Part shown: one piece after another, positions 8,916-32,910 of the stretch
Numbering within the stretch: the first letter of the stretch is position 1
Layout of the letters: every line of letters starts with the position of its first letter
Assembly: GCA_964639345.1 (NCBI GenBank)
Contig: CAZXDF010000014.1
Span: 1 to 35,811 of the forward strand
Direction: 5' to 3'
Source of the DNA: an uncultured candidatus Brocadiaceae bacterium
GTDB taxonomy: Bacteria; Planctomycetota; Brocadiia; SM23-32
Length of the DNA stretch: 35,811 nt
Position numbers and translations under genes: made by a program
The notes under the pieces: generated by a model
Told to the model about the DNA's origin: nothing
Databases searched by the model: none
Seen by the model: only the letters and a program-made list of their open reading frames with translations

Positions 8916-8941
8916 TACGGATCCCTGACTCCGGTCCCGGC

Positions 8942-9496: not shown

Positions 9497-9517
9497 AGGC
9501 GCCCCGGTCATTCCCCG

Positions 9518-10099: not shown

Positions 10100-10118
10100 G
10101 GGTCTTTTCGCTCCTGCG

Positions 10119-11549: not shown

Positions 11550-11573
11550 CCCGGCTCCTGAGTTGGGCGCGGA

Positions 11574-11765: not shown

Positions 11766-11825
11766 ATCTATCCTCCGTCCCGGGCCGCCATTGCATCAGC
11801 CGGCCGCGCGACAAGGGGAGGGCAA

Positions 11826-12662: not shown

Positions 12663-12896
12663 GGGCGCGGCCCCCGCCAAGAGAAGTTCCCGGATCGGTC
12701 CGAATGCCGCCGCCGGCCGGTGGCGTGCCGGCGCGGCGGATCGGCGTCACTGACCCCCAATATACCGCCTGCCCCCCGGCGACCGCAAGACATCCGTGCG
12801 GGACCAGTTGCTTTCATGCACGCAGCTATGTTCTCCCCCATGCGAGTCCCCACTGCCGAGCGCGGCGTCAGCATCGTCTGCCGCGGTCTCACTCAC

Positions 12897-12925
12897 TTGA
12901 CTTGCCGCTCGATCTGAGGGACAAT
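12897..12925 (+). promoter_or_regulatory. Candidate sigma70-like promoter for the por operon (TTGACT-17-GACAAT)
   Basis: The motif match was read by eye about 70 nt upstream of the porG ATG. The consensus may not apply to this lineage. Confidence 0.25.
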
Positions 12926-12996
12926 GAAACACTTTGCGTGCTTTGCCGGGCAATCGTCTCTTTTCAACCGCGTTGTGCCTAATAGGTTTCCAGCCA

Positions 12997-13578: not shown

Positions 13579-13903
13579 GAAGCTGATGAAGAAGGGCGAG
13601 ATGGTCCCCGGCGCGGTAGTACCGGGTGGGAGCATGGCGGGCCTGCACACGGGTTCCTGGCGCACCTACGCGCCGAGGACCGACTTCGAGAAGTGCACCC
13701 ACTGCCTGTTGTGCTGGATATATTGCCCGGACAGCGCGATCGAGGTCAAGGGCGGCAAGAAGCTCGGGACCAACTTCCAGTACTGCAAGGGCTGCGGTAT
13801 CTGCGCCAAGGAATGCCCCGCCGACGCCATCGAGATACAGCTCGAAAGCGAGATGGCCGACCGGGAAAAGGAAGACGAGCAGCCCCGGGAAAGGAAGGAT
13901 TGA
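13571..13903 (+). CDS. porD: Pyruvate:ferredoxin oxidoreductase delta subunit (2x[4Fe-4S])
   Basis: It has two cluster motifs, 'CTHCLLCWIYCP' and 'CKGCGICAKECP'. The GTG start at 13571 overlaps the porG stop, and the ATG at 13586 is an alternative. There is an acidic C-terminal tail. Confidence 0.85.
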   Translation: MAKKLMKKGEMVPGAVVPGGSMAGLHTGSWRTYAPRTDFEKCTHCLLCWIYCPDSAIEVKGGKKLGTNFQYCKGCGICAKECPADAIEIQLESEMADREKEDEQPRERKD

Positions 13904-13907
13904 CCCA

Positions 13908-15068: not shown

Positions 15069-15124
15069 ACAACTACACGCCCGCGCAAGGCTGACACACA
15101 AGACGGCACGTTGGGAGAACGCGA

Positions 15125-16069
15125 ATGCCGACGACGAAACTCAAAGAATTGGGCGACTTCCCCGAACTGCTTTCGGGAGGTCACGCTGCCTGCCCCGGTT
15201 GCGCGGGGCCGATCATCCTGCGGCAGGCCCTGCTGGCCGCGCAGCAGGACGGCGCCAGTGTCGTCGTCAGCATCGCCACCGGCTGCATGGAGGTCAGCAC
15301 CACCCTGTACCCCAACTCCGCCTGGCGCGTCCCCCTGGTCCACAGCGCCTTCGAGAACGCCGCCGCCACCATCAGCGGCGCAGAGGCCGCATACCGCAGC
15401 CTCAAGAGGCAGGGCAAGGTCAAGGACGACATCCGTTTCATCGCCTTCGGAGGGGACGGCGGCACCTACGACATCGGCCTCCAGTCGCTGTCGGGAGCGC
15501 TCGAACGCGGCCACAACTTCACCTACATCTGCTACGACAACGAAGCCTACATGAACACCGGCATTCAGCGTTCTGGCGCCACCCCGAAGGGCGCGTTCAC
15601 CACGACCGCTCCGGCCGGCAAGGTGAGCTCCGGCAAGACGCAGGTCAAGAAGGACCTGACGGCCATCGTCGCCGCCCACGGCATACCGTACGTGGCGCAG
15701 GCAGCCCCGCATCGCACCCGCGACCTGATGCAAAAGGTCCAGAAGGCCGTCGCCATCGAAGGCCCGTGTTTCCTCAACATCCTCGCGCCCTGCCCGCGCG
15801 GGTGGCGCTACGAGCCCGCGGACACGATCCAGCTATGCAAGTTCGCCGCCGACATCTGCCTGTGGCCGCTGTATGAGATCGAGGACGGCAAGCTCAAGAT
15901 CAACTACAAGCCGCGCGAGAAAAAGCCCGTCGAAGAGTGGCTCAAGGGGCAGGGCCGCTTCAAGCACCTATTCAGCCCCAAGAACGAGCACCTCGTCGCC
16001 GAAATCCAGGCCGATATCGACCGCAGATGGGAAGCACTCCTCAAGCGCGAGGAAGACGACAAGAGCTAG
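15125..16069 (+). CDS. porB: Pyruvate:ferredoxin oxidoreductase beta subunit (TPP-binding)
   Basis: 'GHAACPGCAGPI' and the TPP motif 'FGGDGGTYDIGLQS...YDNEAYMNTG'. Stop is TAG. Confidence 0.9.
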   Translation: MPTTKLKELGDFPELLSGGHAACPGCAGPIILRQALLAAQQDGASVVVSIATGCMEVSTTLYPNSAWRVPLVHSAFENAAATISGAEAAYRSLKRQGKVKDDIRFIAFGGDGGTYDIGLQSLSGALERGHNFTYICYDNEAYMNTGIQRSGATPKGAFTTTAPAGKVSSGKTQVKKDLTAIVAAHGIPYVAQAAPHRTRDLMQKVQKAVAIEGPCFLNILAPCPRGWRYEPADTIQLCKFAADICLWPLYEIEDGKLKINYKPREKKPVEEWLKGQGRFKHLFSPKNEHLVAEIQADIDRRWEALLKREEDDKS

Positions 16070-16115
16070 CGCTCCGTCAACCTTGCTTTGACGGGTGCAA
16101 CGGCCACACCTCCAT

Positions 16116-16166
16116 GGGTAGCGCCGCCGTCTCGGCGGCGACGGAGGCGAGACGCCTCCGCTACCC
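16116..16166. repeat. REP-doublet (REPIN-like) palindromic element with GTAG/CTAC termini
   Basis: Sequence is GGGTAGCG-[GCCGCCG TCT CGGCGGC]-GAC-[GGAGGCG AGA CGCCTCC]-GCTACCC. It has a closing stem GGGTAGC/GCTACCC plus two 7-bp hairpins whose loops form CGTCTCG/CGAGACG. The architecture matches 23831..23900. Confidence 0.6.
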
Positions 16167-16345
16167 TGGGTGAGTGGAAGTCCTCGACCGGTCATGCCCG
16201 ACTTGACAGAGCAATAGTCGCACTTGAACGCCGGGTAAACGGGCGCCCGGAGGAAGCGTCGAGCGTTTCTATATGCCCGGGGCAACGCAGTAGGGGGGCT
16301 TATCATGTTCTTCGTCCTGACCGATGAGAAGGGGGATTGGCGGAG

Positions 16346-17203
16346 ATGATGCGACATGGATGGCTCTTTCTGGTCTTGCCTGTTGCCGTCGCCGCACTGG
16401 GCGGATGCTCCGTGACAGGCTTGGAGCGGAGCGCCTCGGCAGGTTATGGTGCTCCTGCGGGCGAAGCAGAACCGGGTGAGACGGAACTTCGCGTGTGGAA
16501 ACCCAGCAAGAGTGTCAAGGTGATTCTGACCCCCTCGGAGCGTGAGAGCCAACCGGGTGGGATCCAGTGGATTGGAACGGAAGGCAGCACGTTATTGAGA
16601 ACCTGGAGTATCACGAGGTTCTTCGGTAGGCCCTGCCTGCTCGGCTCTTATCCCGACCAGTTAGTTGTGTTGCCGTATCTTGTGGGCGGGGGAACGGGAG
16701 CCGCCGAGTATGACTGGGTCGTCATATCTAGACTGGATGGCAAGCCGGCCTTGCGGGAGATGGGGCTTTGGAGGTATTGGTCTGTCTCCAAGGACTCGTA
16801 CGAGTTTAGACTGTCGCCTGCCTTAGCGGCTGTCGGCGCGGAGGTTCGCCAGACCGCTATCGAGTTTCTATACGTGGCGAGGCATGAGGGAGAGGCTGAC
16901 ATAATAGAGGGTACCCTCCTGCTGTGCTGCCCCAACGCCGAGGGAGCTTCTTGGCGGCTGTGTCCGCTGAGGCTGGAAGATGCATTGTCCTGTGTTGCGC
17001 TATTGGACTGCCGTCTTGATGCCGCCCGACATTGGGCCTCGGGAATCCTTGCAGTAATGGCACCCGATGAGACTGCAGCGCATCTCGAAACTGAACCCAA
17101 TTCGTCCGAAAAAGTAGAGAGAGCGCAGGCGCTCAGGCGTGCTTTGACCCGTTGGTACGCGGAGAAAGACCTTCGAGCGCGAAGCGGGCGTCGAGGGCCA
17201 TGA
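16346..17203 (+). CDS. Hypothetical lipoprotein (orphan, lower GC)
   Basis: The ATG at 16346 has GGGGGA upstream, and the signal peptide ends in 'AALGGC'. No family recognised. The 3' end overlaps the convergent acd gene by 71 nt. Confidence 0.5.
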   Translation: MMRHGWLFLVLPVAVAALGGCSVTGLERSASAGYGAPAGEAEPGETELRVWKPSKSVKVILTPSERESQPGGIQWIGTEGSTLLRTWSITRFFGRPCLLGSYPDQLVVLPYLVGGGTGAAEYDWVVISRLDGKPALREMGLWRYWSVSKDSYEFRLSPALAAVGAEVRQTAIEFLYVARHEGEADIIEGTLLLCCPNAEGASWRLCPLRLEDALSCVALLDCRLDAARHWASGILAVMAPDETAAHLETEPNSSEKVERAQALRRALTRWYAEKDLRARSGRRGP

Positions 17204-19259
17204 CGCCCTGGCCGCGCGGGAAGACGAGCAGAGGGTTAAGGTCGCATTCGGTGAGCTGCGGAAAACGGGCGGCAAGGTAACTCACGCGCAGTATGCAGTC
17301 CGCCAGGGCGTCCAGGTCGCCGGGCTCCCGCCCGCGGAAGCCCTTGAGCATGTCGCTACCCTTGATCTCGTCGATCATCTCCCGCGCATCCTCGGCCGTC
17401 AGGGGCGCCACGCGGAACGCCACGTCCTTCAGGAGCTCCACGTATATCCCTCCGAGCCCGAACATGACGAGCGGCCCGAACTGCGGGTCGCGGCTCATGC
17501 CCACAATCACCTCGGTGCCGCCCGTGACCATCTGCTGCACCAGCACGCCGTCGATCGCCGCGTCCGCCTTGTAGGCCCGCGCGCCTTCCATGATCTCGTC
17601 GTAGGCGGCCCGCACCTGCGTCTCGTCCGCCAGCCCCACCTTCACGCCCCCGGCGTCGGACTTGTGTAGGATGTCGTCGGAGGAGACCTTCATCACCACC
17701 GGATATCCGATCTGCGCGGCGGCCCGCACGGCAGCGTCCGCGCCCTCGGCCAGCACGCTCTCCGGCAGGGGCAGCCCGCACGCCTCCACAAGGCGGCCGG
17801 CGTGACGCTCACCGATGGTCGTCATGCCTCTCTCGGCCGCCTCGCCGAGCACCTGCTCGATCGCCGCCTCGTCGAACTCGAAAGCGGGCGGCTCCTGGGG
17901 CGTGGCCTCGGTCCACGTGCGAAAGCGATACATGGCGTCCAGGGCCGTGACGGCGCGCTCGGGGTGGATGTAGTTGGGCACTGACATGCGGTCGAGGATC
18001 TCGCACCCTTCCCCCGTGCTCAGGCTGCCCATGAAACAGGCGAGGACGGGCTTCTCGGTGCCGGCTGCCAGCTCTCCTATCGCCTCAGCCGTTGTCTCGA
18101 CCTCGGTGGTGGTCTGGGGGGTGAGGATCACGAGGAGCGCGTCCACGTTCTCATCCCCTATGGCAGCCTCGATCGCCACGCGATACATGGCCGCTTTGGC
18201 GTCCCCGAGCACGTCGATGGGGTTGTGGATGTTGGCGGCGGGTGGAAGCCTGGAGGCGAGGTATGATTCGGTTTTCTCGGCGAGCGCGGCCATCGTCAGG
18301 GCACACGACTCGATGGCGTCCGTGGTGAGGATGCCCGGCCCGCCGGCGTTGGTCACGATGGCGACGCGGTTGCCCTTCGGCGGCCCCTGGCGGGAGAAGC
18401 CAAGGGCGAAATCGAAGAAGGTGGTCACGTTGCGGGCCCTGACGACGCCGCACTGCGCGAAGGCGGCCTCGTAGGCCACGTCGGCCCCGGCGAGGCTGCC
18501 GGTCTGGCTGGATGCGGCGCGCGCGCCCGCAGCGGTGCGGCCGGATTTCAGCACGACCACCGGTTTCTTCTTCGTCACGCGGCCGGCGGCCGACATGAAC
18601 TTCGCCCCGTCGCTGATGCTCTCCACGTAGCCCAGGATGACCTCCGTGCTCTCGTCCTCGCCCAGGGCCTTGATCAGGTCGCTCTCGTCCACGTCCGCCT
18701 TGTTGCCGTAGCTGACGAAGCGCGATATGCCGACGTTCTCGCCGGCGAACACGTCCAGTACCGCGGTGCCGACCGCGCCGGACTGACTGAAGAACGACAC
18801 GTTGCCCGCCGGCGGCATTGTGGCGCTGAAGGAGGCGTTGAGGCCGGTCGACGGGCTGATCACGCCCAGGCAGTTGGGGCCGATGCAGCGCACGCCGTGC
18901 TCGGCGCAGCGGCGCCTAAGCTCGGCCTGAAGCCGGGCGCCTTCCTCGCCCGCTTCCTGAAACCCGGCGGAGATGACGATCACGCTGCTGCACCCCACAG
19001 CCGCGCACTGGCCGATCACGTCCGGCACGAACTTCGACGGGATCGCGATTACGGCCAGGTCGATACCCTTGCCGATGGCCTTCAGGTCGGCGTAGCACTT
19101 CAGCCCGAGCACCTCGTCGGCTTTCGGGTTCACCGGGTAGATCGGTCCCTCGAAACCGGCGTCGATGAGATTCTTGAGCGTGTCATGCCCCACCTTTCCG
19201 GGCGTGCGACTCGCGCCGACGACCGCAATGGAAGACGGTTGGAAGAAGTGCTCGAGCAT
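17133..19259 (-). CDS. acd: Acetyl-CoA synthetase (ADP-forming), fused alpha/beta (Acd)
   Basis: 708 aa. The CoA-binding N-terminus is 'SIAVVGASRTPGKVGH'. It has succinyl-CoA-synthetase-like ligase domains and a C-terminal ATP-grasp ('GYPVVMKVSSDDILHKSDAGGVKVGL'). Confidence 0.9.
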   Translation of the reverse strand: MLEHFFQPSSIAVVGASRTPGKVGHDTLKNLIDAGFEGPIYPVNPKADEVLGLKCYADLKAIGKGIDLAVIAIPSKFVPDVIGQCAAVGCSSVIVISAGFQEAGEEGARLQAELRRRCAEHGVRCIGPNCLGVISPSTGLNASFSATMPPAGNVSFFSQSGAVGTAVLDVFAGENVGISRFVSYGNKADVDESDLIKALGEDESTEVILGYVESISDGAKFMSAAGRVTKKKPVVVLKSGRTAAGARAASSQTGSLAGADVAYEAAFAQCGVVRARNVTTFFDFALGFSRQGPPKGNRVAIVTNAGGPGILTTDAIESCALTMAALAEKTESYLASRLPPAANIHNPIDVLGDAKAAMYRVAIEAAIGDENVDALLVILTPQTTTEVETTAEAIGELAAGTEKPVLACFMGSLSTGEGCEILDRMSVPNYIHPERAVTALDAMYRFRTWTEATPQEPPAFEFDEAAIEQVLGEAAERGMTTIGERHAGRLVEACGLPLPESVLAEGADAAVRAAAQIGYPVVMKVSSDDILHKSDAGGVKVGLADETQVRAAYDEIMEGARAYKADAAIDGVLVQQMVTGGTEVIVGMSRDPQFGPLVMFGLGGIYVELLKDVAFRVAPLTAEDAREMIDEIKGSDMLKGFRGREPGDLDALADCILRVSYLAARFPQLTECDLNPLLVFPRGQGVMALDARFALEGLSPRTNGSKHA

Positions 19260-21974: not shown

Positions 21975-22133
21975 GTTCTGTCTGAGAAGTCCGTCGTCGG
22001 CCCGAGAGCGAGCGAGACCACGCGGTTCGCGGAGCCCGCAGCAGGCATATCTTTAGATACGCCGATACAGGGCGACAATGAAACGCGCCGGTCGCAGCCG
22101 GTCGAAGCCCGATCGGGTTTCTCAGACAGAGCC
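21974..22133. repeat. Stem-closed ~150-nt structured repeat, copy B (immediately downstream of tatA stop)
   Basis: A 15-bp closing stem, GGTTCTGTCTGAGAA (21974-21988) with TTCTCAGACAGAGCC (22119-22133), has one G-U pair. The internal hairpin is GGCATATC..GATACGCC (22044-22063). It is homologous to copy A. Confidence 0.45.
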
Positions 22134-22206
22134 TGACCGGGGCGTCCGGTCGACCCATCCTGATTCGGCTTGGGGGCTGGTGTGTGTTCTCCCGCCGAGC
22201 CGACCC

Positions 22207-23544
22207 ATGGAGAGCGCCCCCATGAGCCTGCGAATCTGGAGGACGTCCCAGCCCGATTTCCCGGCGCTGCTCGATGATTTCGAGGGCCGACGCAGGGTGG
22301 CGCAAGGCTTCGATGCCGACGTGCGGAGGCGGGTCGAGAAGATACTCGAGGCCGTTCGCACCCGGGGCGACGAGGCGGTGCTTGAGTTCACGGAACGCTT
22401 CGACGGCTGCCGCCTGGAGCCGGAGACCATGCGCGTCGGGCCGGAAGAGGTGGAAGAGGCCCTGGCGAGCATCCCCGGGGCGCTCCTCGATGCGCTCAAG
22501 TACGCCGCCGAGCGTATCCGCACCTTTCAGGAATCCATCCTCCTGCGCGACCCCGCGCCCATTGAAACCGGGGGAAGGAGCCTGGGCATCCGATACCGCC
22601 CCGTGGACTCGGCGGGGTTGTGCGTGCCGGGCTTCACGGCGTCCCTGGCCTCCAGCGTGCTGATGAACGCCGTGCCCGCGGCCGTAGCCGGTGTGGGGCG
22701 CATCGTGATGATCACGCCGCCGAGCCCCTGCAGGGGGCCGCGCCCCTTCCCTTCCGTCTCGCCCGACCGCCTGGCCGCCGCGCACGTGGCGGGCGTGGGC
22801 GAGATCTACCGGGTTTTCGGCGGCCAGGGCGTCGCGGCCCTCGCCTTCGGCACCGAGACCATCCCGGCGGTCGACTTCATCGCGGGGCCCGGCAACGTCT
22901 ACGTGCAGTCGGCCAAGAAGGCCGTCTTCGGCGTAGTGGGCGTGGACATGATTGCCGGGCATAGCGAGGTGCTGGTGCTCGCGGATTCCAGCGCCAAACC
23001 CCAGTGGGTGGCCGCCGAGCTCATCAGCCAGAGCGAGCACAATGAGGGCAGCGCGACGCTGCTCACCGATGATGAGCAACTAGCCGGGGCCACAGCGCAA
23101 TGCGTCGACGAGCAGCTCGCCGCCCACAGCGGGGCGCGGGAGGCGCGCGATCATCTGGAACGCTCCGGCCTGGCCGTCGTGGCGGGGTCGATGGACGAGT
23201 GCGTGGAACTCGCCAATCGCCTCGCGCCGGAGCACCTGGTAATCATGACACGGGAGCCCGAGGCCCTCAGCGAGGGCATAAGGCACGCGGGGGCCATCTT
23301 CCTGGGTGACCGGACCCCCGTGGCCGTCGGCGACTACCTCGCCGGTCCCAGCCATTGCCTGCCGACCGGCACCACGGCGCGTTTCAGCAGCGGCCTGACG
23401 GCCAACACGTTCCTGAAATCCACCAGCCTGGTGCGCTACGACCGCAAGGCGCTCGCCGAGGACGCAGCAAGCCTCGAGGTCATCGCCGAAGCCGAGGGCC
23501 TTGAGGCGCATGCGCGGTCGGTCAGGTTTAGGCTGGAGGGGTGA
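22207..23544 (+). CDS. hisD: Histidinol dehydrogenase
   Basis: I trimmed the ORF to the ATG at 22207, with the ATG at 22222 as an alternative. 'IAGPGNVYVQSAKK', 'GHSEVLVLAD', 'SQSEHNEGS' and 'APEHL' follow the HisD pattern. Confidence 0.9.
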   Translation: MESAPMSLRIWRTSQPDFPALLDDFEGRRRVAQGFDADVRRRVEKILEAVRTRGDEAVLEFTERFDGCRLEPETMRVGPEEVEEALASIPGALLDALKYAAERIRTFQESILLRDPAPIETGGRSLGIRYRPVDSAGLCVPGFTASLASSVLMNAVPAAVAGVGRIVMITPPSPCRGPRPFPSVSPDRLAAAHVAGVGEIYRVFGGQGVAALAFGTETIPAVDFIAGPGNVYVQSAKKAVFGVVGVDMIAGHSEVLVLADSSAKPQWVAAELISQSEHNEGSATLLTDDEQLAGATAQCVDEQLAAHSGAREARDHLERSGLAVVAGSMDECVELANRLAPEHLVIMTREPEALSEGIRHAGAIFLGDRTPVAVGDYLAGPSHCLPTGTTARFSSGLTANTFLKSTSLVRYDRKALAEDAASLEVIAEAEGLEAHARSVRFRLEG

Positions 23545-23830
23545 ACATCCGACGAGTAACCGGGAGAGGCTGATTCCGTACGTAAGAAGGGCTGAAAAGA
23601 TTGGAGGGCGGGATCCTTCAATCCAATCCCACCTGTCAGACTCAGATCCGCTTCCAACCTCTTCAGCCCGACAACCAGTTTACCACATCTTGGCGAAAAA
23701 TCCACCCCTCCGGCAGATTTTTTTCGCTCGGCATGTGGCTTTCCCGCCCTCGCGGGCAATTTCGCTCTGCTGCTCACTCCGCGTAGCCGGATCCTGGCGT
23801 AAGGAGCGGCTCTGTTGAAAACCTCCCTCT

Positions 23831-23900
23831 GGGTAGCCCCCGGCGTCTCGCCGGGGGTGTCAGAACCGCCATGCGGCCGAGCGAGACGCCCGGCCTACCC
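23831..23900. repeat. REP-doublet (REPIN-like) palindromic element with GTAG/CTAC termini
   Basis: Sequence is GGGTAG-[CCCCCGGCG TCT CGCCGGGGG]-TGTCAGAACCGCCATGC-[GGCCGAGCG AGA CGCCCGGCC]-TACCC. The TCT/AGA loops match the 16116 element but the stem sequences differ. The spacer resembles the 5' part of repeats A and B. Confidence 0.6.
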
Positions 23901-24073
23901 AAACAGTGAGAAGGCGAGAACGGGTTCCCAACAGCAGTAAGGAGCGCAAATGGAGGGTGTAAAGGGGAGTTGCGCGTGAGAGCGATGCCCGGGGGGGCAA
24001 ACGGGTGCGATTTCGCTGCGCGGTGCGGGAATGTGGCACTCTTACCCCCTGGCAGGGCGCGACCGACATGGTG

Positions 24074-24102
24074 TTGACGGCCGGGCGCGCACAGGGTATG
24101 CT
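24074..24102 (+). promoter_or_regulatory. Candidate sigma70-like promoter upstream of the giant-protein locus (TTGACG-17-TATGCT)
   Basis: Motif match only. It would give a leader of about 200 nt or more containing small hairpins (CCGGGT..ACCCGG at about 24126-24144). Confidence 0.3.
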
Positions 24103-24379
24103 TGAGTCGCGGCCGGGGGGGCGAGCCGGGTCAGGGAAACCCGGGCGCGGGCTGCTCCACGTTTCTTGTGAACGAAAGTGGGCTCGGCGGCGTCTAACGG
24201 GATGATGATGGTCCCGGCAGACAGGAGGTACACGGGCGGACACCGGCAGAGCGGGGAGCTTCTGCTGATGACGGCCCTGCGGGCTGGAGGAGGGGGACTC
24301 ATGGCAGGACTTCGCCTTCGTTTCCGAGGCGCGCTACTCGGTCAGCGCACGGGAGCGCCACGCAACGGTCGAGGCGAGC

Positions 24380-25171
24380 TTGAAGTTCATCGCGGTCGAG
24401 GGGGGATGGCACGAGGTTCCCCTGATCCCTTCCGCGATCCCGCTTCGGTCGGTCGAGATTGGCGGGAGGAAGGCCTACGTCGAGCGGGGCCCCGAGCGCT
24501 ACGTGGGGCACTTCCACGGCAAGGGAGATTTCAGTATTCGTCTCGAGTTCGTGCTGGAGGTGGCGCAGCGGGGCCGCGAGCGCTCGATTGAACTGCCGCT
24601 TGCGCCCGCCGCCGGCTCGCGCGCGGAATTCCTGCTGGACGAGCCCGGCTACCGCGTCCGAACCACGCCCGAGGTGCCCATCGAGCTTTCCGCTGCGGCG
24701 GGCGGCACGCACGCAACGCTGCACGTCGGGGGCCTCGATTCCCTGACCGTCACCTGGCTTCCCGAGGAGATCGAGCCGGCGCCCGCGCCGGTGTTTGAAG
24801 CGACGGAACGCGGTATCATCGAACTGCGCGCGGGGGCTGCGCTGAGGGAATCCGAGTTCACCATCCAGGTGCGTCGTGGCGAACTGGCTTCTATGGACGT
24901 TGCCGTGCCGCCCGGCGTGGACGTGCTGAGCGTGCGCAGGAAGGAGCCTGCCTCCGAGCGCCGTGCCATGACCCCATCGGCGTTCACGCCGACGGCCGAC
25001 ATCGACGCCTGGCACATCGTGGAGCAGGCCGGAGAGCGCCTGATTCGCATGCGCCTCAGCAAACCGGTGCGCGGGGAGTTCATCTTCGCCATCGCCTCCG
25101 AGGAAGTGACCGGTGGGCCGGGAGAGGCGCTCATCCTGCGGCCCTTCCGAGTCGTGGGCGCGAGGCACTAG
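24380..25171 (+). CDS. Giant repeat envelope protein, copy 1, segment before in-frame TAG (N-terminal module + unit 1)
   Basis: This is the track ORF from the TTG at 24380. The frame is open from 24272, and similarity to copy 2 begins at about 24308. It ends at TAG 25169-25171. The 5' boundary is unresolved (see findings). Confidence 0.55.
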   Translation: MKFIAVEGGWHEVPLIPSAIPLRSVEIGGRKAYVERGPERYVGHFHGKGDFSIRLEFVLEVAQRGRERSIELPLAPAAGSRAEFLLDEPGYRVRTTPEVPIELSAAAGGTHATLHVGGLDSLTVTWLPEEIEPAPAPVFEATERGIIELRAGAALRESEFTIQVRRGELASMDVAVPPGVDVLSVRRKEPASERRAMTPSAFTPTADIDAWHIVEQAGERLIRMRLSKPVRGEFIFAIASEEVTGGPGEALILRPFRVVGARH

Positions 25172-25186
25172 GGCGGACGCCTTGTC

Positions 25187-28100
25187 GTGGCGTCGATGCC
25201 CAGCCTTCGCGTCATCGACACCGGCTCGACGGCCGCGCTCGCCCCCGTAACGGAGGAGCCCATCGCGTCCCGCCACGGCGCCCGGGTGCCGATCAAGCGC
25301 CTGGCTTTCCTGTATCACAGCCTGCCGATCGAGCTTCGCCTGAGGGTGGCGCCCGTGCGGCCGCAGGTCGTCGCCACGGCGGTCAGCCACGCGCGGCTCC
25401 AGGCCGGGCTGGTGGAGCTGCTCACCAGAATCAGCTATCGCATCGGGGACGCGCCGCTGGAGCGGCTGCGCATCGGGCTGGATGAGGGACTCATCGTCCT
25501 GGGCGTCTCGGGCAGGGACATACGGATGTGGCGCACGGAGGGCGACGTGCTGGAGGTGCGGCTCAGCAGGCCGGTGAGCGGCGATTACGAGCTTGCCGTG
25601 AACTGCGTCCAGCACCTGCGCAAGGTGGACGGCGTTCTCATCCCGCACGTTCGCGCCCTGGACGCGGAGAGAGAGTCCGGCGCCGTCGGCGTCTCGGCGG
25701 TCGATGAGGTTGCCCTGCTGCATCATCACTCCACGAAGTTCGTGCAGGTCGACGTGGAGGAGTTGCCGGGCTGGGTGAAGGCGCTGGGGCCGAAGCTCGC
25801 ATACGTCTACGATCAGCCGGGCGGCGTGCTCGCCGTCGAATCTTCCCTCATCAAGCCGGTGCTGCACGTGCGCGGATATGCGACGGCGAACGTGGGCGAG
25901 GGCGTCGTGGAGGAGGAGTGCGTGTTTGTCGCCGACGTGGAGAGGCGGCCGGTCTTCGGCTTCCGCCTCCGCATTCCGGCGGGCCTCACGCCCATCAGCC
26001 TGCTGGGCGAGGACGTCGCCGACTGGGAGTTTCATCCGGCCCGGCGGGCCCTCAGCGTTTCGCTGAAGCAGGGGCTCGTCGGCCGCACGCGGCTGCACGT
26101 GTTCTGCGAGCGACGCTGCGGGCTGGACGTTGCCAGCATACCCCTCGGCGGCGTTGCCGTGCTGGATGCGGACGACGTGTCGGGTTGGCTGGGAGTCGGC
26201 ACCGACGCGAACCTCGAGCTGGCGCCGGCCGCGGTCGAGGGCATGATCCCGATGGACATCAAGGACGTGCCGCCGCTGGTGGCGGCCGCCGGCAACCTGC
26301 GGCTTGCCTACCGCTGGGCGGGCGAAGAATGGCGCATGGGCTGCGTGACCCGGCCGGTGCGGCCCCGCCTCGAGGTTGAGACGCGGACGCGCCTGCTGTT
26401 CGGCACGGGGCGGATGCAGGCGCGTACGGAGATAGTATGCAACATCGCAAAAGCCACGCTTGAGGAGCTTCTCATCGCGCTGCCGCCGGGTGCCGTCAAC
26501 CCGCAGATAAGGGGCGAGAACATCCGGAGCCGCGAATTGACCGACGGTCTCTGGCGCATCGGGCTGGCAAGGCCCGTCACGGGCGAGTGGCGGCTGCGCG
26601 TGAGCTTCGAGCAGGTCGCCGACCCGCGCACGGGCGACCTCCGGTTCGCTGGCGTCAGGCTCCCGCAGGCCGAGCGGCAGGCCGGCGTGATCGGCGTATA
26701 TCTGGAGGACCCGCAGGTCGAGGTGAGCGTGTTGAACGCCGACGGCGCGGCCCGCACGCAGACCGCCCCGGACGTTGACGGCGGGGCGCACGCGTTCCTG
26801 GACGCCTACAGGTATTCCGACCCGGCCCGCACAATCGACTTCAAGATGAAGGGCCACGCCATGGTGCGCGGCGTGCAGCTCAGCGCGGAGAAGTGCAGCA
26901 TCGTGACCGTGGTCAAGGAGCGCGGGCAGGCCGTCAACTACATGACGTGCAGCGTGAAGAACGTCGGCGCCCAGTTCTTCCGGATGCGGCTGCCGCAGGG
27001 CGCGGACCTGTGGGGCGCCTACGTCCAGGGCAAGCCCGTGCGCCCCAACAGGCTCCCGGATGGCGACATTCTGATTCCGCTGCTGGAAGCGCCGCGCGGC
27101 AAGCCATTCGACCTGGCCGTCATATGGGCGGAACCGACGGGCAGGCTGGGGCTGGGCGGCTCGCTCGCGCTGGTCGGGCCCGAGCTTGGCCAGCCGGCGG
27201 AGGAGGTGGACTGGGAGGTGAACCTGCCGGAGCGCTACCAACTCGTGCGCGCGCGGGGCAACATGCGCCTCGAGCAGCGTAAGGCCTGGTATCGCGAGGG
27301 GCTGCCGGGAATCCTGTGGCAGCACGTGCGGCGGGCGTGGCCGGTCGTGAAGATTGTTCTGCTCGTGGCTGCGGGGCTTGTCGGGATCGCGCTGCTTTAC
27401 ATCATCGCCCGCGCGCTGCGCCGCCACATGGCCCGCGCAAGGGCGGTGTGGAAAGAGGCCGCTCCCGAGGCCGAGGCGAAGCGCCGCCCGATCCTTGGAG
27501 GGGCTGTGGGAGTCCTGATCATCGTGTTTATCGTGGCGGTGTTCGCCGCCATGCTGATGCCGGCTCTGAGCACGGCAAGGCACGAGGCACGAGAGGCATC
27601 CGCAATGAGCAACCTGCGTCAAACCGGCCTGGGCATGCTGATGTATGCGAACGACCACGGCGACAAACTTCCCCCCTCGCTGGACGTCCTGATAGAAGAA
27701 GGGTACCTAACCCGGAACGCGCCTGTCTCGCCGATGACGGGCGAGAGGTTCATCTATGACCCCACGGTGGAACTGACCGGCGACCTAGCGAGGAAGACGA
27801 TGGCGTGGGACCGTCGCGACCCGAAAGCGGACGGCCAAGCCGTGCTCTTCGCAGACGGCCACGTCGAATGGGTCAAGGCCGAACGTGGCGCCAAGGCGCT
27901 TCGGGGCGTTCCGCTTGGCGGCGTAGAGGGGTGGCGAGAGGACATCGGCGTGACGGCTTCGGGAGGCGTGAGCGTCGATGCATTCCCTGGGTATGAGAAT
28001 GACGCGGACATAGACGGCGCCGGGCGCCCCGACCGTTTGGAGGGTAGCGGCCCCGAGGCGGACTTGGACCTGTCGGGGCCGGCGGCGTCAGCGGAAGATG

Positions 28101-29179
28101 AGGAAGGCGCCAAAAGGATTCACAGTTACAACAAGGCACTGCAACTGGCCGACTCGTACCGAAAGCGGGGCGAATACAGGAAGGCCGAAGGCCAATACAG
28201 GCGGGCCCAGCGCCTGGCACCCGACGACACCCGCGCCAAACAGGGCCTCAGCCGCCTGGAAGAGCTACAGACCATCGCAGAGGACGGGGGAAAAGCGAAG
28301 ATGGCAGCAAAGCCGCCGGTATCGGGTATGCGGCCGCCGGCGCCGCAGGCACCCCCTGCCAAGCCCAAGCCGCGCTGGGAGACATATAGCGTCGGGAGCC
28401 TCATCGCGCAGGCCGGCCAACTGGAAGAAGCAGAAGGAGCCGACTGGGAGGATGACGTCGCAGAGACCGGTACTGAGCGCGGGATACTCGGCCTGGTCTC
28501 TGGCGAGATCAAGAACTTCGACTTTGCTGATGGCGGCAGGGCGGTGCTCGAGGGCGGTGACCTGGTCATCACCGGGCACGCAGAGGTAATCGATGAGGTG
28601 AAGCGTTCCGCGGCCGGGCTGCGGGGCAGGATGCTGGAGAGGACGCGGCAGATCACGGTGAAGAAACTGCAGCAGAAGGCGGAAAGTGCCGCAAAGCGCC
28701 GCGCAGCACTGCGGGATATGGCGCGGGCCAGCCAGCTCAAGACACGCGTCGGCGGCGGGACGATAGTGGGCAACCGCGCGGCGGGGGCCTTGCCGATCGA
28801 GATCGACTTCCCGCGCGTGGGCACGAGGCCGTATCCGTTCCACATGGATTTCGCGGGCACCTCGGTGGCGAGGATCGAGCTGACCTGCCTGCGGGTCGGC
28901 ACGGCGCTGACCGTGCAGGGGCTGATAGGCATCGCGGCCCTGGCGCTGATCGCCCTGACGGGCTGGCATCGCCCCCGGGCGGGGCTGGCGCTGGCCGTCG
29001 GGCTGGTGCTGCTGTCGAGTTTCGTCCTCAAGACCGGTGGCGAGGCCCCCAAACCCTACGCCGTCATGGCGCTTCTGGGGGCCTGCTTTGCGGTCCTGGT
29101 GCCACTTACGCGGCTGCTGGCTGTGGCAAGGCAGCGCGCATGGAATGCCATGGGGAATACGAACAGAGGGACACAATGA
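25187..29179 (+). CDS. Giant repeat envelope protein, copy 1, segment after TAG (units 2-5, TM pair, pseudopilin-like/TPR/secretin-N-like insert, C-terminal TM anchor)
   Basis: 1330-aa ORF in the same frame as 24380..25171, with strong GC3 bias. It has four ~165-aa units, two TM helices (about 27338-27570) and three C-terminal TM helices. Stop is TGA. Confidence 0.7.
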   Translation: MASMPSLRVIDTGSTAALAPVTEEPIASRHGARVPIKRLAFLYHSLPIELRLRVAPVRPQVVATAVSHARLQAGLVELLTRISYRIGDAPLERLRIGLDEGLIVLGVSGRDIRMWRTEGDVLEVRLSRPVSGDYELAVNCVQHLRKVDGVLIPHVRALDAERESGAVGVSAVDEVALLHHHSTKFVQVDVEELPGWVKALGPKLAYVYDQPGGVLAVESSLIKPVLHVRGYATANVGEGVVEEECVFVADVERRPVFGFRLRIPAGLTPISLLGEDVADWEFHPARRALSVSLKQGLVGRTRLHVFCERRCGLDVASIPLGGVAVLDADDVSGWLGVGTDANLELAPAAVEGMIPMDIKDVPPLVAAAGNLRLAYRWAGEEWRMGCVTRPVRPRLEVETRTRLLFGTGRMQARTEIVCNIAKATLEELLIALPPGAVNPQIRGENIRSRELTDGLWRIGLARPVTGEWRLRVSFEQVADPRTGDLRFAGVRLPQAERQAGVIGVYLEDPQVEVSVLNADGAARTQTAPDVDGGAHAFLDAYRYSDPARTIDFKMKGHAMVRGVQLSAEKCSIVTVVKERGQAVNYMTCSVKNVGAQFFRMRLPQGADLWGAYVQGKPVRPNRLPDGDILIPLLEAPRGKPFDLAVIWAEPTGRLGLGGSLALVGPELGQPAEEVDWEVNLPERYQLVRARGNMRLEQRKAWYREGLPGILWQHVRRAWPVVKIVLLVAAGLVGIALLYIIARALRRHMARARAVWKEAAPEAEAKRRPILGGAVGVLIIVFIVAVFAAMLMPALSTARHEAREASAMSNLRQTGLGMLMYANDHGDKLPPSLDVLIEEGYLTRNAPVSPMTGERFIYDPTVELTGDLARKTMAWDRRDPKADGQAVLFADGHVEWVKAERGAKALRGVPLGGVEGWREDIGVTASGGVSVDAFPGYENDADIDGAGRPDRLEGSGPEADLDLSGPAASAEDEEGAKRIHSYNKALQLADSYRKRGEYRKAEGQYRRAQRLAPDDTRAKQGLSRLEELQTIAEDGGKAKMAAKPPVSGMRPPAPQAPPAKPKPRWETYSVGSLIAQAGQLEEAEGADWEDDVAETGTERGILGLVSGEIKNFDFADGGRAVLEGGDLVITGHAEVIDEVKRSAAGLRGRMLERTRQITVKKLQQKAESAAKRRAALRDMARASQLKTRVGGGTIVGNRAAGALPIEIDFPRVGTRPYPFHMDFAGTSVARIELTCLRVGTALTVQGLIGIAALALIALTGWHRPRAGLALAVGLVLLSSFVLKTGGEAPKPYAVMALLGACFAVLVPLTRLLAVARQRAWNAMGNTNRGTQ
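27482..27871 (+). other. Embedded pseudopilin-like domain (prepilin-type hydrophobic helix + H-X9-DG/DUF1559-like end)
   Basis: 'RRPILGGAVGVLIIVFIVAVFAAMLMPALSTARHEAREASAMSNLRQTGLGMLMYANDHG ... VLFADGHVEWV'. This resembles PVC-type pseudopilins ('LLPALS.ARE.AR...C.NNLKQIGLA...Y' and a terminal 'DGHV' motif). It lacks the G/F-T-L-I-E cleavage/methylation site. Confidence 0.6.
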
Positions 29180-29190
29180 GGGAGCGAACG

Positions 29191-31671
29191 ATGAGCAAGA
29201 GGCACTGGTTGTTAGGAGTCGTGCTGGCGGCGATGCTGTGCGGCGGGCTGACGCGCGCCGCCGAGCAGCAGGCGGTATCGGCCGGCGATATTGACGAAGC
29301 CGATGTGGCGGGCGTCCCCGCTGCCCGGGCGGGCCTGGTTCTGACCCAGGCCCTCGCGGAGGGCGCGGTCGAGGATGGGCTGGCCAAGCTGCGCCTGACG
29401 CTCGATGCGCAGTCCTACAGCGACGGGGAACAGCGCGTTCTGCTGCTGCCCGCCGACGTGGCCGTGAGCGACTGGTCCGTCAAGAAGTCGCTGTTCGGTC
29501 CGAAGGCCTACGTCCGCCGCAGCGACCGCGGCGTGGAGTTCGTCATGGTGGGGGATGGCACGTGCCGGCTGCACCTGGACTTCGTGCTTGGGGTCGCGGA
29601 GCAGAAGTCCGTGCGCGCGGTCATACTGCCCATCGTCCCCGCCGTGGTGAGCACGACCCGCCTGAGAGTGCCGGGGACCGACCTGGAGTTCAGCACCGAC
29701 CCGAAGGCCACCGTGGAAACCCGCGCCCTGGCCGACGCGACGATCGTCACGGTCTACGGCGGCGAGGGCACCGTGGCCCTGAGCTGGAAGCCGAAGGTGC
29801 CGGAGAAGGTGCTCGAGGCGGTCGTCTTCGCCAGCCAGGCCATGCGACTTCGGCTGGGCGAGGGGCTCGTGAGGATCGACACGGCGATTGACTACACCAT
29901 CGTGCAGGGCAGCCTCAGCGGGCTCGAGGTCCGCTATCCGGCCGATTGCGCCCTGCTCAACATCGAGGGCGCGGACATCCGGACGTGGGACGTCTCGGAG
30001 CCGCAGGGCGCGGCGCCCAGGACGCTGAAGGTCTCCCTGATGGACGATGTGGAAGGGCACTACCGGCTGACCGTGAGCCTTGAGAAGGTCCTGCCGGAGC
30101 TGCGGGCCGAGTTCGACCTGTCGGCCATCGAGCCGCTGGGCGTCGTCAGGGAGAAGGGCCAGGTGGCGGTCATGGCGGTCAAGGGCATCAGCGTGGAGGC
30201 GGTGTCGCTGGCGAACATCAGCCACGTGGACGTGCGGGAGATGACGGTGCTGCCGGGGATGGCGCGGCAGGATGTGCGGCTGGGTTTCCGGTATCTGAAA
30301 CGCCCCTGGAGCCCGAGGCTGCGCACGGGGGAGGTGGTGGCCAAGACCTCGGTCGAAACCCTGACGACGGTCCGCGCCGGCATGGACACCATGCGTCTGC
30401 TCTCGGACCTGAACTACACCGTCCGGGACGCCGGCGTCTTTCAGTTCCGCGTGCGGCTGGACGAGGGACTGAAGCTGATCGACATCAACGGGGCCAACAT
30501 CAACAACTGGCAGATGGACGAAGCGGGGCGCGTGCTCACCGTGGCGCTGCGATCCAAGGCCGAGGGGCGGTACCGGCTCCAGATAGAGACCGAGATGGAC
30601 AAGCCGGCCGGTGAAGGGGCGGCAGTGCCGGCGGTGCAGGCGCTGGAGGTTGACCGGGCGACGGGCTACCTGGCCATCATCCCCGCGCCCGGGATGAAGG
30701 TGGAAACGGCCTCCCTGTCGGGCATAAGCCAGATCGACGTGAAGGAGCTGCCCGATGAGCTGCTCAAGCTCTCGCCGGCGCTCGCCTACCGCCACATCCG
30801 CCCCGGGTACGGGCTCGCCATCAACGTCACCGAGATTCAACCGGAGGTCCACGCCGAGGTTCAGACGGTCGCCATCCTGGACGAGCACGAGTTGAACCTC
30901 GACACCGAGATCCACTACTCCATCCGACGCGCGGGGATCTTTCAGCTCCGCGTGGCCATCCCGAAGGAGCTGCGCCGCACCAACATCGAGGGGCCGGACA
31001 TCGACGATACCTCGTGGGACGAGGAGCAGGGCATCCTCACGGTGAACCTCCGCTCGAAGGTGACGGGGGCCTACGTGCTGAAGATCGAGACCGAGAAGAC
31101 GCTGGCAGAGATCGGCGAGAGCATGGAAGTGCCGGTCATAAGCACTGCGGGCGTGCGCAAGGAGCGCGGGTTTCTCGCCGTCGTGACCAGGGCGAGCGTG
31201 CGGCTGAAGGCGGCCGAGGGCAAGCTGGTGGGGCTGGACGACGTGGCGGTGAGCGACCTGCCCCCGCAGATGCTGCGGCGCGCGGGGGAGGTGGCGATGG
31301 CGTTCAAGTACTTCGCCCAGCCCTGGGGCCTGGCGTTCGCCGTGGAGCGGATCGACCCTCGCGTGACGGCCGAGGTGTTCAACCTCATCTCGGTCGGCGA
31401 GAAGCTGGTGACGATCAGCGCGACCGTGCAGTACCGCATCCTCCACGCCGGCGTCGACCGGTTCGTGGTGAAGCTGCCGCCGGACGCTGAAGCCGTTGAC
31501 ATCGACGGTGACGCCATCAAGCGCCGCGAAGAGGGCAAGGACGAGGAGAAGGGCATCTGGACCGTCACGCTTCAGTCCAAGCGCACCGGCTCCTATACGC
31601 TCTACGTGAGCTTCGAGCACGAGCTTGCCGAAGACCAGGCCGTGTTCCCCTACGGGGGCCTCCAGGTGTAG
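29191..31671 (+). CDS. Giant repeat envelope protein, copy 2, segment before in-frame TAG (signal peptide, N-terminal module, units 1-4)
   Basis: The ATG at 29191 has GAGGGAG 7 nt upstream. The Sec-type signal peptide is 'MSKRHWLLGVVLAAMLCGGLTRAAEQ'. Unit openings are at about 30145, 30649 and 31156. It ends at TAG 31669-31671. Confidence 0.75.
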   Translation: MSKRHWLLGVVLAAMLCGGLTRAAEQQAVSAGDIDEADVAGVPAARAGLVLTQALAEGAVEDGLAKLRLTLDAQSYSDGEQRVLLLPADVAVSDWSVKKSLFGPKAYVRRSDRGVEFVMVGDGTCRLHLDFVLGVAEQKSVRAVILPIVPAVVSTTRLRVPGTDLEFSTDPKATVETRALADATIVTVYGGEGTVALSWKPKVPEKVLEAVVFASQAMRLRLGEGLVRIDTAIDYTIVQGSLSGLEVRYPADCALLNIEGADIRTWDVSEPQGAAPRTLKVSLMDDVEGHYRLTVSLEKVLPELRAEFDLSAIEPLGVVREKGQVAVMAVKGISVEAVSLANISHVDVREMTVLPGMARQDVRLGFRYLKRPWSPRLRTGEVVAKTSVETLTTVRAGMDTMRLLSDLNYTVRDAGVFQFRVRLDEGLKLIDINGANINNWQMDEAGRVLTVALRSKAEGRYRLQIETEMDKPAGEGAAVPAVQALEVDRATGYLAIIPAPGMKVETASLSGISQIDVKELPDELLKLSPALAYRHIRPGYGLAINVTEIQPEVHAEVQTVAILDEHELNLDTEIHYSIRRAGIFQLRVAIPKELRRTNIEGPDIDDTSWDEEQGILTVNLRSKVTGAYVLKIETEKTLAEIGESMEVPVISTAGVRKERGFLAVVTRASVRLKAAEGKLVGLDDVAVSDLPPQMLRRAGEVAMAFKYFAQPWGLAFAVERIDPRVTAEVFNLISVGEKLVTISATVQYRILHAGVDRFVVKLPPDAEAVDIDGDAIKRREEGKDEEKGIWTVTLQSKRTGSYTLYVSFEHELAEDQAVFPYGGLQV

Positions 31672-31719
31672 GAGGTCCAGCGCGAGACCGGGTACCTGGC
31701 CATCACGTCCCGGCCGGAC

Positions 31720-32910
31720 GTGGAGCTCGCGGTCCCGGACTCCGACGTCGAGGGCCTCACGCCCATAGACAGCCGCGAGATCCCAGCGAGCTACATGCGC
31801 GGCGTCACTCTGCCGGTGCTGCTGGCCTACCGCTACGTATCGCATCCGTACACGATCCGAATGGGCGCGATGCCTCACGCGGCGGCCGACGTCACCGTGG
31901 CCGTGGTGGAGAGCGCCCACCTGAGCACCATCATCACCGAAGAGGGCAACATGATCACCGACATGGCGTGCACGCTGCGCAACAGCCGCCAGCAGTACCT
32001 CCGCCTGAAGCTGCCCGAGAGGATCTGGCACGCCTTCGTGGACAACAAACCCGTCATGCCCCTGATCGACGGCGAGATAACCAAGATACCCGTCGCCCGG
32101 GCCGCTGGGAGCAGCGCCTCTTTCGTGGTGAGGCTGCGCTACAGCCAGGAGCGCGACTCGCTCGGACGGGTCGGCTCCATCCGGCTGGAATCGCCCTTCG
32201 AAGGGATCGACGTGATGAGGCTCGGCTGGAAGCTTTCGCTCCCCGACGGCTATGAGGTTGTGCGGGACCTGGGGAACATCCGTATGTTGGAGGACCCCCG
32301 CCTCCTGGAGGCCGACATCAAGGGGCTGAAGCCGGACATGGAGGTTCAGGTGCGCCTTGAGCGTGACCGGAGCATTCAGGAACAGGGAGGCGAGCAGTAC
32401 GAGTGGAACTGGCAAGCGCAGCGCAAGATACAGCAGGACGCCGGAGGCAAGGGCCGCCAGGTCGGCATCTACACCGGCAGCAAGCCTAGCCAGGGGAACG
32501 TCTTCGTATTCCAGAGCCTCATCCTGACCGGCGAAGAGGCGGCCTGGGTCGGGGGCCAGTATGTGAAAGGCTCCATGGCCATCCCGCTCAAGGGCGTCCT
32601 GGCGATCCTGGTGGCCGCTCTGTGCGGACTCGCCTGGCGTCGGCTGACCTGGCCGCCAGCGGGGCGGGTGGCCGTGCTGGCCGGGGCTGCCGTGGTCCTG
32701 CTCGGCGTGCGCACGCTTGCTGAAGGCGCCTACCGCAGCTACCTCACGACGGTCATCCTGTCCATGCTCGTCGTGGCTGCGGCGTTGGCGCTCTACACCG
32801 CCGGCACGTGGCTGCGCGAGGCATGGACGCGCCGGCGCATCGCCCGGGATGCAAAGGCGATCAGCCGCGAGCAGGCCGAACCGCCCGCAGCGCAGCCCGC
32901 GCCCGAGTAA
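31720..32910 (+). CDS. Giant repeat envelope protein, copy 2, segment after TAG (unit 5 + three-TM anchor)
   Basis: This ORF is in the same frame as 29191..31671. The first canonical start is the GTG at 31720. The 16 codons from 31672 ('EVQRETGYLAITSRPD') already match the unit-opening motif, so the real coding region probably begins at 31672. Stop is TAA. Confidence 0.65.
   Translation: MELAVPDSDVEGLTPIDSREIPASYMRGVTLPVLLAYRYVSHPYTIRMGAMPHAAADVTVAVVESAHLSTIITEEGNMITDMACTLRNSRQQYLRLKLPERIWHAFVDNKPVMPLIDGEITKIPVARAAGSSASFVVRLRYSQERDSLGRVGSIRLESPFEGIDVMRLGWKLSLPDGYEVVRDLGNIRMLEDPRLLEADIKGLKPDMEVQVRLERDRSIQEQGGEQYEWNWQAQRKIQQDAGGKGRQVGIYTGSKPSQGNVFVFQSLILTGEEAAWVGGQYVKGSMAIPLKGVLAILVAALCGLAWRRLTWPPAGRVAVLAGAAVVLLGVRTLAEGAYRSYLTTVILSMLVVAAALALYTAGTWLREAWTRRRIARDAKAISREQAEPPAAQPAPE

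Follow-up and report, generated by a model that had tools for sequence, protein, structure and literature searches.

The DNA analyzed here (the window) is an entire contig of 35,811 nt with 68% G+C, and NCBI records assign its proteins to a "Candidatus Brocadiia bacterium" metagenome-assembled genome (MAG). Flanked by hisD upstream and icd downstream, it carries on the forward strand a tandem pair of giant genes, referred to below as copy 1 (24272 to 29179) and copy 2 (29191 to 32910). A first-pass annotation, made before any database search, had taken these for two giant frames encoding paralogous repeat proteins with membrane anchors, of a family that it could not name. The paralogy is clear: the two copies are collinear, share one plan, and align with 24.7% identity over ~970 aa (E = 1e-76). 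The frames are not intact. Each contains an in-frame TAG that the annotation had read through (25169 to 25171 in copy 1 and 31669 to 31671 in copy 2), and copy 1 has no start; ORF callers and databases show four separate open reading frames (ORFs) of 263, 1330/1327, 826, and 396 aa. Overall, the observations in that annotation are partly confirmed and its interpretation is partly supported.

The shared plan includes an array of units whose repetition was shown by comparison of family profiles; BLASTP of each copy against itself returned the self match alone. For this comparison, a 33-sequence family alignment of copy 2 was cut at the previously proposed unit openings, and the pieces were aligned profile against profile with hhalign. 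The three central units match one another with E-values of 1e-30 to 1e-49 over 152 to 166 columns, the terminal unit matches the central ones at 1e-11 to 1e-13, and the final ~108 residues of the N-terminal module resemble the second half of a unit (1e-14 to 1e-21). A hidden Markov model (HMM) of the unit found in each copy three full units flanked by an N-terminal partial unit and a terminal variant unit, for which the "five units" described earlier were a fair shorthand. The full units of copy 1 scored i-E-values of 1e-43 to 1e-46, these same units being part of the HMM training set. The units lie at the proposed openings, and the motifs quoted with them correspond to conserved columns of the unit alignment (alignment A3), where the conserved motifs are R-E-x-G-x-x-A-V, L-[AG]-[FY]-[RK]-Y, Y-x-I-R-x-A-G-V-F, and L-R-S-K-x-E-G-x-Y-x-L.

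The 5' part of copy 2, fragment a (29191 to 31668; 826 aa, P0001), runs up to the TAG and encodes, in order, a signal peptide (29191 to 29262, from transmembrane [TM] and signal prediction), an N-terminal sandwich, a partial unit (29785 to 30135), and three full units (30148 to 30645, 30652 to 31149, and 31159 to 31668), the units being delimited by the unit HMM and hhalign. Fragment b (31672 to 32910), which the databases hold as an ORF of 396 aa starting at GTG 31720, contains the terminal unit (31672 to 32286), a helix and a two-strand element, and then a three-helix anchor (32575 to 32799) followed by a basic cytoplasmic tail. The signal-peptide-like N terminus of copy 2, its three C-terminal TM helices, and the five TM helices found overall in copy 1 bear out the Sec signal peptide and the multipass C-terminal anchors reported in the first-pass annotation. 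The annotated start of copy 2, at 29191, lies 15 nt past an alternative in-frame ATG (29176) that overlaps the stop codon of copy 1 (TGA, 29177 to 29179) as ATGA (29176 to 29179), and this overlap suggests that the two copies may be translationally coupled.

Copy 1 begins with fragment a (24272 to 25168; a 263-aa ORF in the databases), which comprises an N-terminal beta-sandwich module and a weak partial unit. Beyond the TAG come three full units (25172 to 25663, 25667 to 26167, and 26177 to 26662, spanning 25172 to 26662 in all; unit HMM and alignment A3) and a terminal variant unit (26657 to 27271) whose homology to the last unit in copy 2, as had been claimed, is borne out by both the copy-to-copy alignment and the unit HMM. 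The array is followed by a TM hairpin (27353 to 27559) formed by aa 1028 to 1046 and 1078 to 1096, with a basic loop between the helices, by a pseudopilin-like module described below, by a TPR-like helical repeat (28139 to 28255), and by a C-terminal three-helix membrane anchor (28901 to 29119; TM prediction and alignment). A coiled coil also lies between the array and this final anchor. The TPR matches, with E-values of 0.002 to 0.02, are below curated cut-offs, and the repeat coincides with a conserved block in the orthologue alignment. A strongly conserved block lies 5' of the anchor, reading GGT-x-GSR-x-AGA-x-PL...YPFHMDYAGTS in the orthologues and GGTIVGNRAAGALPIE...YPFHMDFAGTS in the window.

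The pseudopilin-like module of copy 1 (27494 to 27886; ~aa 1075 to 1205) consists of a TM helix and a small domain whose C-terminal end reads VLFADGHVEWV. Its matches to PF07596 and TIGR04294, at 16.6 bits (cut-off 23.3) and 13.8 bits (cut-off 19), respectively, both fall below the curated threshold, while PF07596 is on record for the orthologues P0060 and P0064, and the distant relative P0046 matches DUF1559 with an E-value of 1e-38. The piece is present in three of six copy 1 orthologues and missing from the other three. In its hydrophobic helix and small domain ending in LFADGHV, it resembles the DUF1559/H-X9-DG pseudopilin-like proteins of Planctomycetota and Verrucomicrobiota, but it is internal to the protein, not N-terminal, and lacks their prepilin cleavage/methylation motif (G|F-T-L-I-E): the internal helix reads RRPILGGAVGVLIIVF, and Gly occupies the Glu5 position.

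AlphaFold2 models computed from 33-sequence alignments have a mean predicted local distance difference test score (pLDDT) of 87 for the 826-aa fragment and 81 for the 412-aa fragment, and their ectodomain is all-beta, in keeping with the arrays of beta-sandwich-like modules on membrane anchors envisaged at first reading. In the models, an N-terminal sandwich is followed by alternating subdomains A (~75 aa) and B (~90 aa), the latter with two strands of ~23 residues, and the terminal unit leads into a short helix, then a pair of strands, and finally three long helices. Because the anchors are predicted to be C-terminal helices in the cytoplasmic membrane, the arrays would face the periplasm of a diderm cell.

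Foldseek searches of the PDB placed chains of ribophorin I/Ost1, an oligosaccharyltransferase subunit of eukaryotes that has no catalytic role, first for both models (8b6l_O, 6s7t_E, 6c26_1, and 6ezn_A; E-values of 1e-8 to 1e-9, probability 1.0, and 340 to 460 aligned columns), with template-modeling scores (TM-scores) of 0.15 to 0.34 that are low because the chains are flexible multidomain arrays. In the models, as in ribophorin I, extracytoplasmic beta-sandwiches appear to lead into a membrane helix, and no catalytic site is present in either, but no sequence similarity was detected, and the pair described here differs in having 9 to 10 subdomains in a repeat array, a three-helix anchor, and a paralogous partner. 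The next matches were the integrin alpha legs (E-values of 1e-7 to 1e-5 over ~800 columns), ITIH1 (3e-4), the M1 aminopeptidase N-domain, and 3kd4; a fold search of BFVD gave only an M1-aminopeptidase-like match. As in integrin alpha/beta (8t2v_A and 3fcs_A), the pair would comprise two membrane-anchored chains with long beta-sandwich legs and short cytoplasmic tails. The likeness is an analogy only: the pair has no beta-propeller head, no vWA domain, and no sequence relationship to integrins, and a heterodimer is suggested here by gene pairing and fusion. The models point to a fold resemblance to noncatalytic extracytoplasmic scaffolds, not to membership in their families.

The arrays belong to a large family that carries no name. 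Searches of Pfam and NCBIfam with the four fragments gave no match to the arrays even at E ≤ 1, seven distant relatives searched against Pfam at E ≤ 0.01 gave none apart from the genuine DUF1559 in P0046, and sequence-profile searches of the PDB with alignments A1, A2, and A3 gave nothing relevant even at E ≤ 10. Nothing on this repeat-array family was found in the literature on ribophorin, DUF1559, or giant proteins in Planctomycetes. The earlier statement that no named family fits stands up to these searches, with no profile match to contradict it. A unit profile of 169 positions, on the other hand, matched 4,786 cluster representatives (clustering at 50% identity) with E ≤ 1e-3, of which 1,236 reached E ≤ 1e-30, and the best matches are mostly proteins of 2,050 to 2,800 aa with 7 to 10 unit matches each. 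The members that we examined are labeled "hypothetical protein" by their sources, except for one labeled "PulG," and the NCBI records among them are Verrucomicrobiota or Limisphaerales MAGs. With thousands of unannotated relatives, the family is neither rare nor peculiar to this locus.

Closer relatives preserve the gene pair. Genes of the copy 2 type were found in 16 species-representative genomes, all of them MAGs, labeled Planctomycetota, "Brocadiaceae," Lentisphaeria, or Muiribacteriota. The copy 2 relatives (n = 32; 904 to 1457 aa, 35 to 65% identity) are all continuous across the stop site, with the uninterrupted copy 2 orthologues measuring 1183 to 1457 aa, and the copy 1 relatives (n = 6; 1502 to 1699 aa, 37 to 52% identity) have signal peptides and are uninterrupted. 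At 11 other species-level loci (L004, L007, L011, L012, L015, L017 to L020, L022, and L024), and likewise on contig ERZ1426840, a copy 2-like gene is immediately preceded by one of the copy 1 type. The pair is thus conserved in related genomes, and the lack of conservation that the first-pass annotation had named as grounds for refutation was not found. At one further locus, L014, the contig ends, and only a short match to the C-terminal extension of copy 1 is seen upstream. The gaps within the pairs are ~12 to 19 nt, and the flanking genes vary between lineages. In the fused proteins of 2,050 to 2,800 aa with Verrucomicrobiota labels, the copy 1 profile covers the first half, through the TM hairpin and the pilin-like region, and the copy 2 profile covers the second half up to the anchor. 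The arrays thus follow one another as the paired genes do, a fusion pattern that would support physical cooperation between the chains, and pairing together with fusion makes it likely that the two chains act jointly. The window pair has several units with the family motifs, in tandem same-strand genes with helical anchors after each array, as do its relatives; an uninterrupted frame with an N-terminal signal peptide is absent from both copies. We place high confidence in the architecture and family assignment of the pair.

Two loci in the family deserve separate mention. On contig ERZ1426840 (138,060 nt; locus genes at 5020 to 18294), a third large gene of 1,457 aa lies on the same strand after the pair (1,655 and 1,250 aa), so that this locus would be a triplet and not a pair; the copy 2 relative P0026 is also 1,457 aa long but is recorded on a contig of 112,561 nt and is not established as that third gene. 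The copy 2 relative P0021 (1,357 aa, 42% identity) has on record a match to Por_Secre_tail (PF18962, a type IX secretion sorting domain), which would imply another localization in that lineage. A window protein matched the same domain below threshold (E = 0.004).

The lesions in the window affect both copies. Two consecutive TGA codons (24266 to 24271) immediately precede the open frame of copy 1, which contains no ATG, GTG, or TTG before 24380, where TTG is the first canonical start. A tblastn search with the N termini of orthologues found homology only from 24314, corresponding to orthologue residues 37 to 55, just past their signal peptides, and no signal peptide was found in a three-frame translation of the gap 5' of copy 1. 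This noncoding gap after hisD (23545 to 24271) measures ~730 nt, compared to ~160 to 380 nt in relatives. A promoter scan gave one sigma-70-type promoter-like match in it (24074 to 24102); the region from 23545 to 24313 showed no repeat in the window, no Rfam match, and no similarity to related loci. The long gap may be the trace of a rearrangement that took away the 5' end of copy 1. In copy 1, the TAG takes the place of the Gln/Glu of the R-[EQ]-x-G motif that opens the first full unit; five of the six orthologues read R-Q-T-G here, so that the change corresponds to CAG becoming TAG. In copy 2, the TAG precedes the R-E-T-G of the terminal unit by five residues, in a variable column where orthologues have L, V, Q, M, P, or T.

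TAG is an ordinary stop in this contig; POR alpha, POR beta, and icd all terminate with it where their Pfam domains end. Reassignment of TAG, for example to pyrrolysine, was considered and rejected: TAG ends other genes in the window, orthologues carry Gln or a varying residue where the window has TAG, and the window contains no tRNA. Contigs from GCA_035092285.1, Logan SRR26502663, and JGI 3300035206 (99.96 to 100% identity to the window) share both TAGs and lack the 5' end of copy 1 in the same way; together with the window, they represent a single population, with 3 single-nucleotide polymorphisms (SNPs) in the whole pair. Of the residues in columns conserved in at least 90% of other family members, copy 2 retains 63 of 65 downstream of its stop and copy 1 retains 181 of 202, both within the range of intact orthologues. 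Because these conserved residues are kept, the inactivation would be recent if the genes are pseudogenes.

Combining these results, the most likely explanation, to which we give about even confidence, is that the locus is a recently inactivated copy of a conserved two-gene operon encoding a two-subunit, cytoplasmic-membrane-anchored periplasmic scaffold. The parts of this statement differ in strength. Loss of function of the copies in this genome is, from the lesions, rather probable, whereas the scaffold role is put forward more tentatively, at somewhat less than even confidence. Of the earlier suggestion of an envelope scaffold or adhesin-like system, we keep the scaffold, find no support for the adhesin, and add that the locus is likely to be decaying.

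Several points weigh against the reading as an inactivated scaffold operon. The parts downstream of the stops show no decay at all, and the 3 SNPs among assemblies are too few for selection to be measurable. In structural terms the two TAGs are placed almost identically, each at the opening of a unit, in different units of the two paralogues; the joint chance of this is ~4e-4, calculated post hoc by assuming four openings in each protein and allowing an offset of up to three residues. Such placement fits gene fission or tolerated readthrough better than random nonsense hits, which are unlikely to have produced it, and simple decay leaves it unexplained. As for the scaffold role, the fold matches have the low TM-scores given above, and the proposal draws on fold analogy and on the absence of catalytic motifs.

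The same facts make it possible, although on the whole unlikely, that the locus still functions, either with leaky TAGs (near-cognate or suppressor readthrough yielding truncated along with full-length products) or by fission into four working polypeptides. In favor of function are, besides the position of both TAGs at unit openings and the retention of conserved residues downstream at the level of intact orthologues, the open frames of 1,336 and 413 codons after the stops with G+C contents at third codon positions (GC3) of 0.85 to 0.88, the identical state in four assemblies from different samples, and the presence of restart codons 6 to 17 codons past the stops. However, at least three housekeeping genes here use TAG as a true stop, no tRNA gene lies in the window, and RNA folding in the 100 nt after each TAG (z = -0.4 and -2.1) is no different from that of control segments (-2.4 and -0.7), with no distinctive readthrough-stimulating structure. 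The downstream fragments have no signal peptide, so that their ectodomains of 300 to 700 aa would not be exportable; copy 1 has neither start nor signal peptide; and split orthologues were never seen. We therefore regard a decaying copy as more likely than a working system.

A broader version of the functional reading draws on distant relatives in which both arrays are fused (2,089 to 2,304 aa). A vWA protein stands beside the giant gene in five of six such loci (L005, 6613 to 9962; L026, 3839 to 6833; a JGI 3300047160 contig; L028, 1 to 4041; and L009, 14948 to 17380). Three of the six have a gene for an extracytoplasmic function (ECF) sigma factor and then one for a vWF_A-VWA-YfbK_C (DUF3520) membrane protein immediately upstream of the giant gene, one has a vWA-YfbK_C protein three genes upstream, and one has a VIT-VWA protein downstream. 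The vWA domain has the fold of integrin I-domains, and this proximity adds to the likeness to integrins. The ECF-vWA arrangement also recalls the sigma/anti-sigma pairs of ECF group 289, whose hallmark is a vWA-DUF3520 anti-sigma factor (PMC7826278), but neither the window nor any of the split-pair loci examined shows it. In its fullest form, this version holds that the pair is a two-chain, integrin- or ribophorin-like envelope scaffold, possibly common to the PVC phyla (Planctomycetota, Verrucomicrobiota, and Lentisphaerota), wired to ECF sigma factors and vWA proteins in some lineages, and that the TAGs here are tolerated or exploited, through leaky readthrough or fission, to make anchorless and anchored isoforms; we consider this distinctly unlikely.

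Still less probable is that the pair consists of divergent members of a named family, such as BatD, DUF4139 (MuiA), or VIT-vWA proteins, with a function like that of the Bat aerotolerance or VIT-vWA systems. The general plan of signal peptide, beta-sandwich ectodomain, and membrane anchor is similar, the fold match to the VIT-containing ITIH1 is weak (E = 3e-4), and vWA-YfbK_C or VIT-vWA genes adjoin the fused distant relatives, as described. The pair is, however, much larger, has a regular 165-aa repeat, and lies in no MoxR-DUF58-vWA operon. Each candidate was rejected on its profiles: BatD (PF13584) gave no Pfam or NCBIfam match at E ≤ 1 in the four fragments and no MoxR, DUF58, BatA, or BatB context in the window; DUF4139/MuiA (PF13598 and TIGR02231) gave none at E ≤ 1 and none at E ≤ 0.01 in the seven distant relatives; and VIT-vWA (PF08487 with PF00092) gave no Pfam match, leaving the ITIH1 fold match. 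A scan of the 20 other ORFs in the window, all of them either housekeeping genes or ORFs lacking a Pfam match, gave no MoxR, DUF58, or vWA gene, and none was found within 10 kb of 14 related loci of the pair family. The first-pass claim that Bat-type partners are missing holds for the window and extends to the split pairs; the fused distant relatives do have vWA neighbors.

We likewise think it very improbable that the proteins are bacterial homologues of ribophorin I acting as accessory subunits of a periplasmic glycosylation machine. Ribophorin is the top Foldseek match for both models, with matches that take in an arrangement of sandwiches followed by a TM segment, and the window contains a PMT_2 glycosyltransferase gene (7305 to 8915). 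That gene, however, is ~15 kb away among unrelated housekeeping genes; there is no sequence signal to PDB chains, no match of the window fragments to the Pfam profile Ribophorin_I (PF04597), and no better TM-scores than those reported above; and an STT3/PglB-type subunit is not a conserved neighbor, none having been found in the window, at L004 or L007, or on contig ERZ1426840. Equally improbable is a role as cell-surface adhesins outside the outer membrane. Long beta-sandwich arrays are typical of adhesins, but these proteins are anchored by C-terminal bundles of TM alpha-helices with basic tails on the cytoplasmic side, and no beta-barrel, sortase signal, or type 1, 5, or 9 secretion signal was found in the window proteins. 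Hardly credible at all is that the stops are assembly or sequencing artefacts in genes intact in the organism: the source is a MAG, and single-base errors do occur in MAGs, but an assembly error is very unlikely because three other contigs carry the same TAGs, the four having been assembled independently (NCBI, Logan, and JGI samples), and the loss of the copy 1 5' end is reproduced in L001 and L003.

The rest of the window agrees with its earlier description as a stretch with no MoxR, DUF58, vWA, or secretion-ATPase partners for the pair, whose place between hisD and icd is confirmed by the ORF scan; scans for tRNAs and Rfam families were empty. The longest hisD ORF (22078 to 23544) encodes 488 aa, compared to 440 aa called in two other assemblies; it includes ~48 additional N-terminal codons, and its Histidinol_dh domain begins at residue 79. 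Also upstream of the pair are a HAD hydrolase gene and, on the reverse strand, a three-gene 2-oxoacid:ferredoxin oxidoreductase cluster (POR gamma-like, alpha, and beta) beside an ADP-forming acyl-CoA synthetase gene (12934 to 16069 and 17133 to 19259); two of the three oxidoreductase genes terminate with TAG. The adjacency of the cluster and the synthetase may indicate substrate-level phosphorylation from acyl-CoA. Farther upstream are genes for RsgA, a DNA polymerase III delta-type (DNA_pol3_delta2) subunit, LipA and LipB, a dihydrolipoamide dehydrogenase-type flavoprotein, the PMT_2 glycosyltransferase, a macro domain protein, and an M48-TPR peptidase. The longest ORFs of lipoyl synthase (3227 to 4462) and lipoyl(octanoyl) transferase (4102 to 4932), in the region from 3227 to 4932 on the reverse strand, overlap by ~360 nt. 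The true LipA start is probably farther downstream than that of the longest ORF, because LIAS_N starts only at residue 117.

Returning to the reading as a scaffold operon, the orthologues show what an intact system looks like. Each chain has a Sec signal peptide, ~1,000 aa of extracytoplasmic beta-sandwich modules, and a three-helix anchor in the cytoplasmic membrane. The array consists of the N-terminal sandwich, the partial unit, three ~165-aa two-subdomain units, and the terminal variant unit, and the upstream paralogue adds, between array and anchor, the TM hairpin, an optional pseudopilin-like domain, the TPR-like repeat, and the coiled coil. In the mechanism that we propose, both chains would insert into the cytoplasmic membrane with their arrays in the periplasm and could pair side by side along their length and through the anchor helices. 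The result may be a long nonenzymatic rod or scaffold, comparable to integrin-type or ribophorin-type legs, that spaces, tethers, or organizes envelope components, with the pilin-like and TPR parts of copy 1 as possible docking sites. In the genome studied here, full-length anchored products are most likely no longer made, given that copy 1 has lost its 5' end and each copy carries a nonsense codon.

The locus in the window is damaged, and annotation pipelines will list it as four unrelated hypothetical proteins; what makes it interesting is the family and the unusual position of the stops rather than any working system at this locus. The family is large, conserved, and without a name, a repeat-array variant of membrane-anchored beta-sandwich envelope proteins, and its repeat unit has no counterpart in Pfam, NCBIfam, or solved structures. 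To our knowledge, the organization of the envelope in Planctomycetota, Verrucomicrobiota, and Lentisphaeria is still poorly understood. A conserved and possibly heteromeric rod would be a candidate structural element of this envelope and a target for cryo-electron tomography and genetics.

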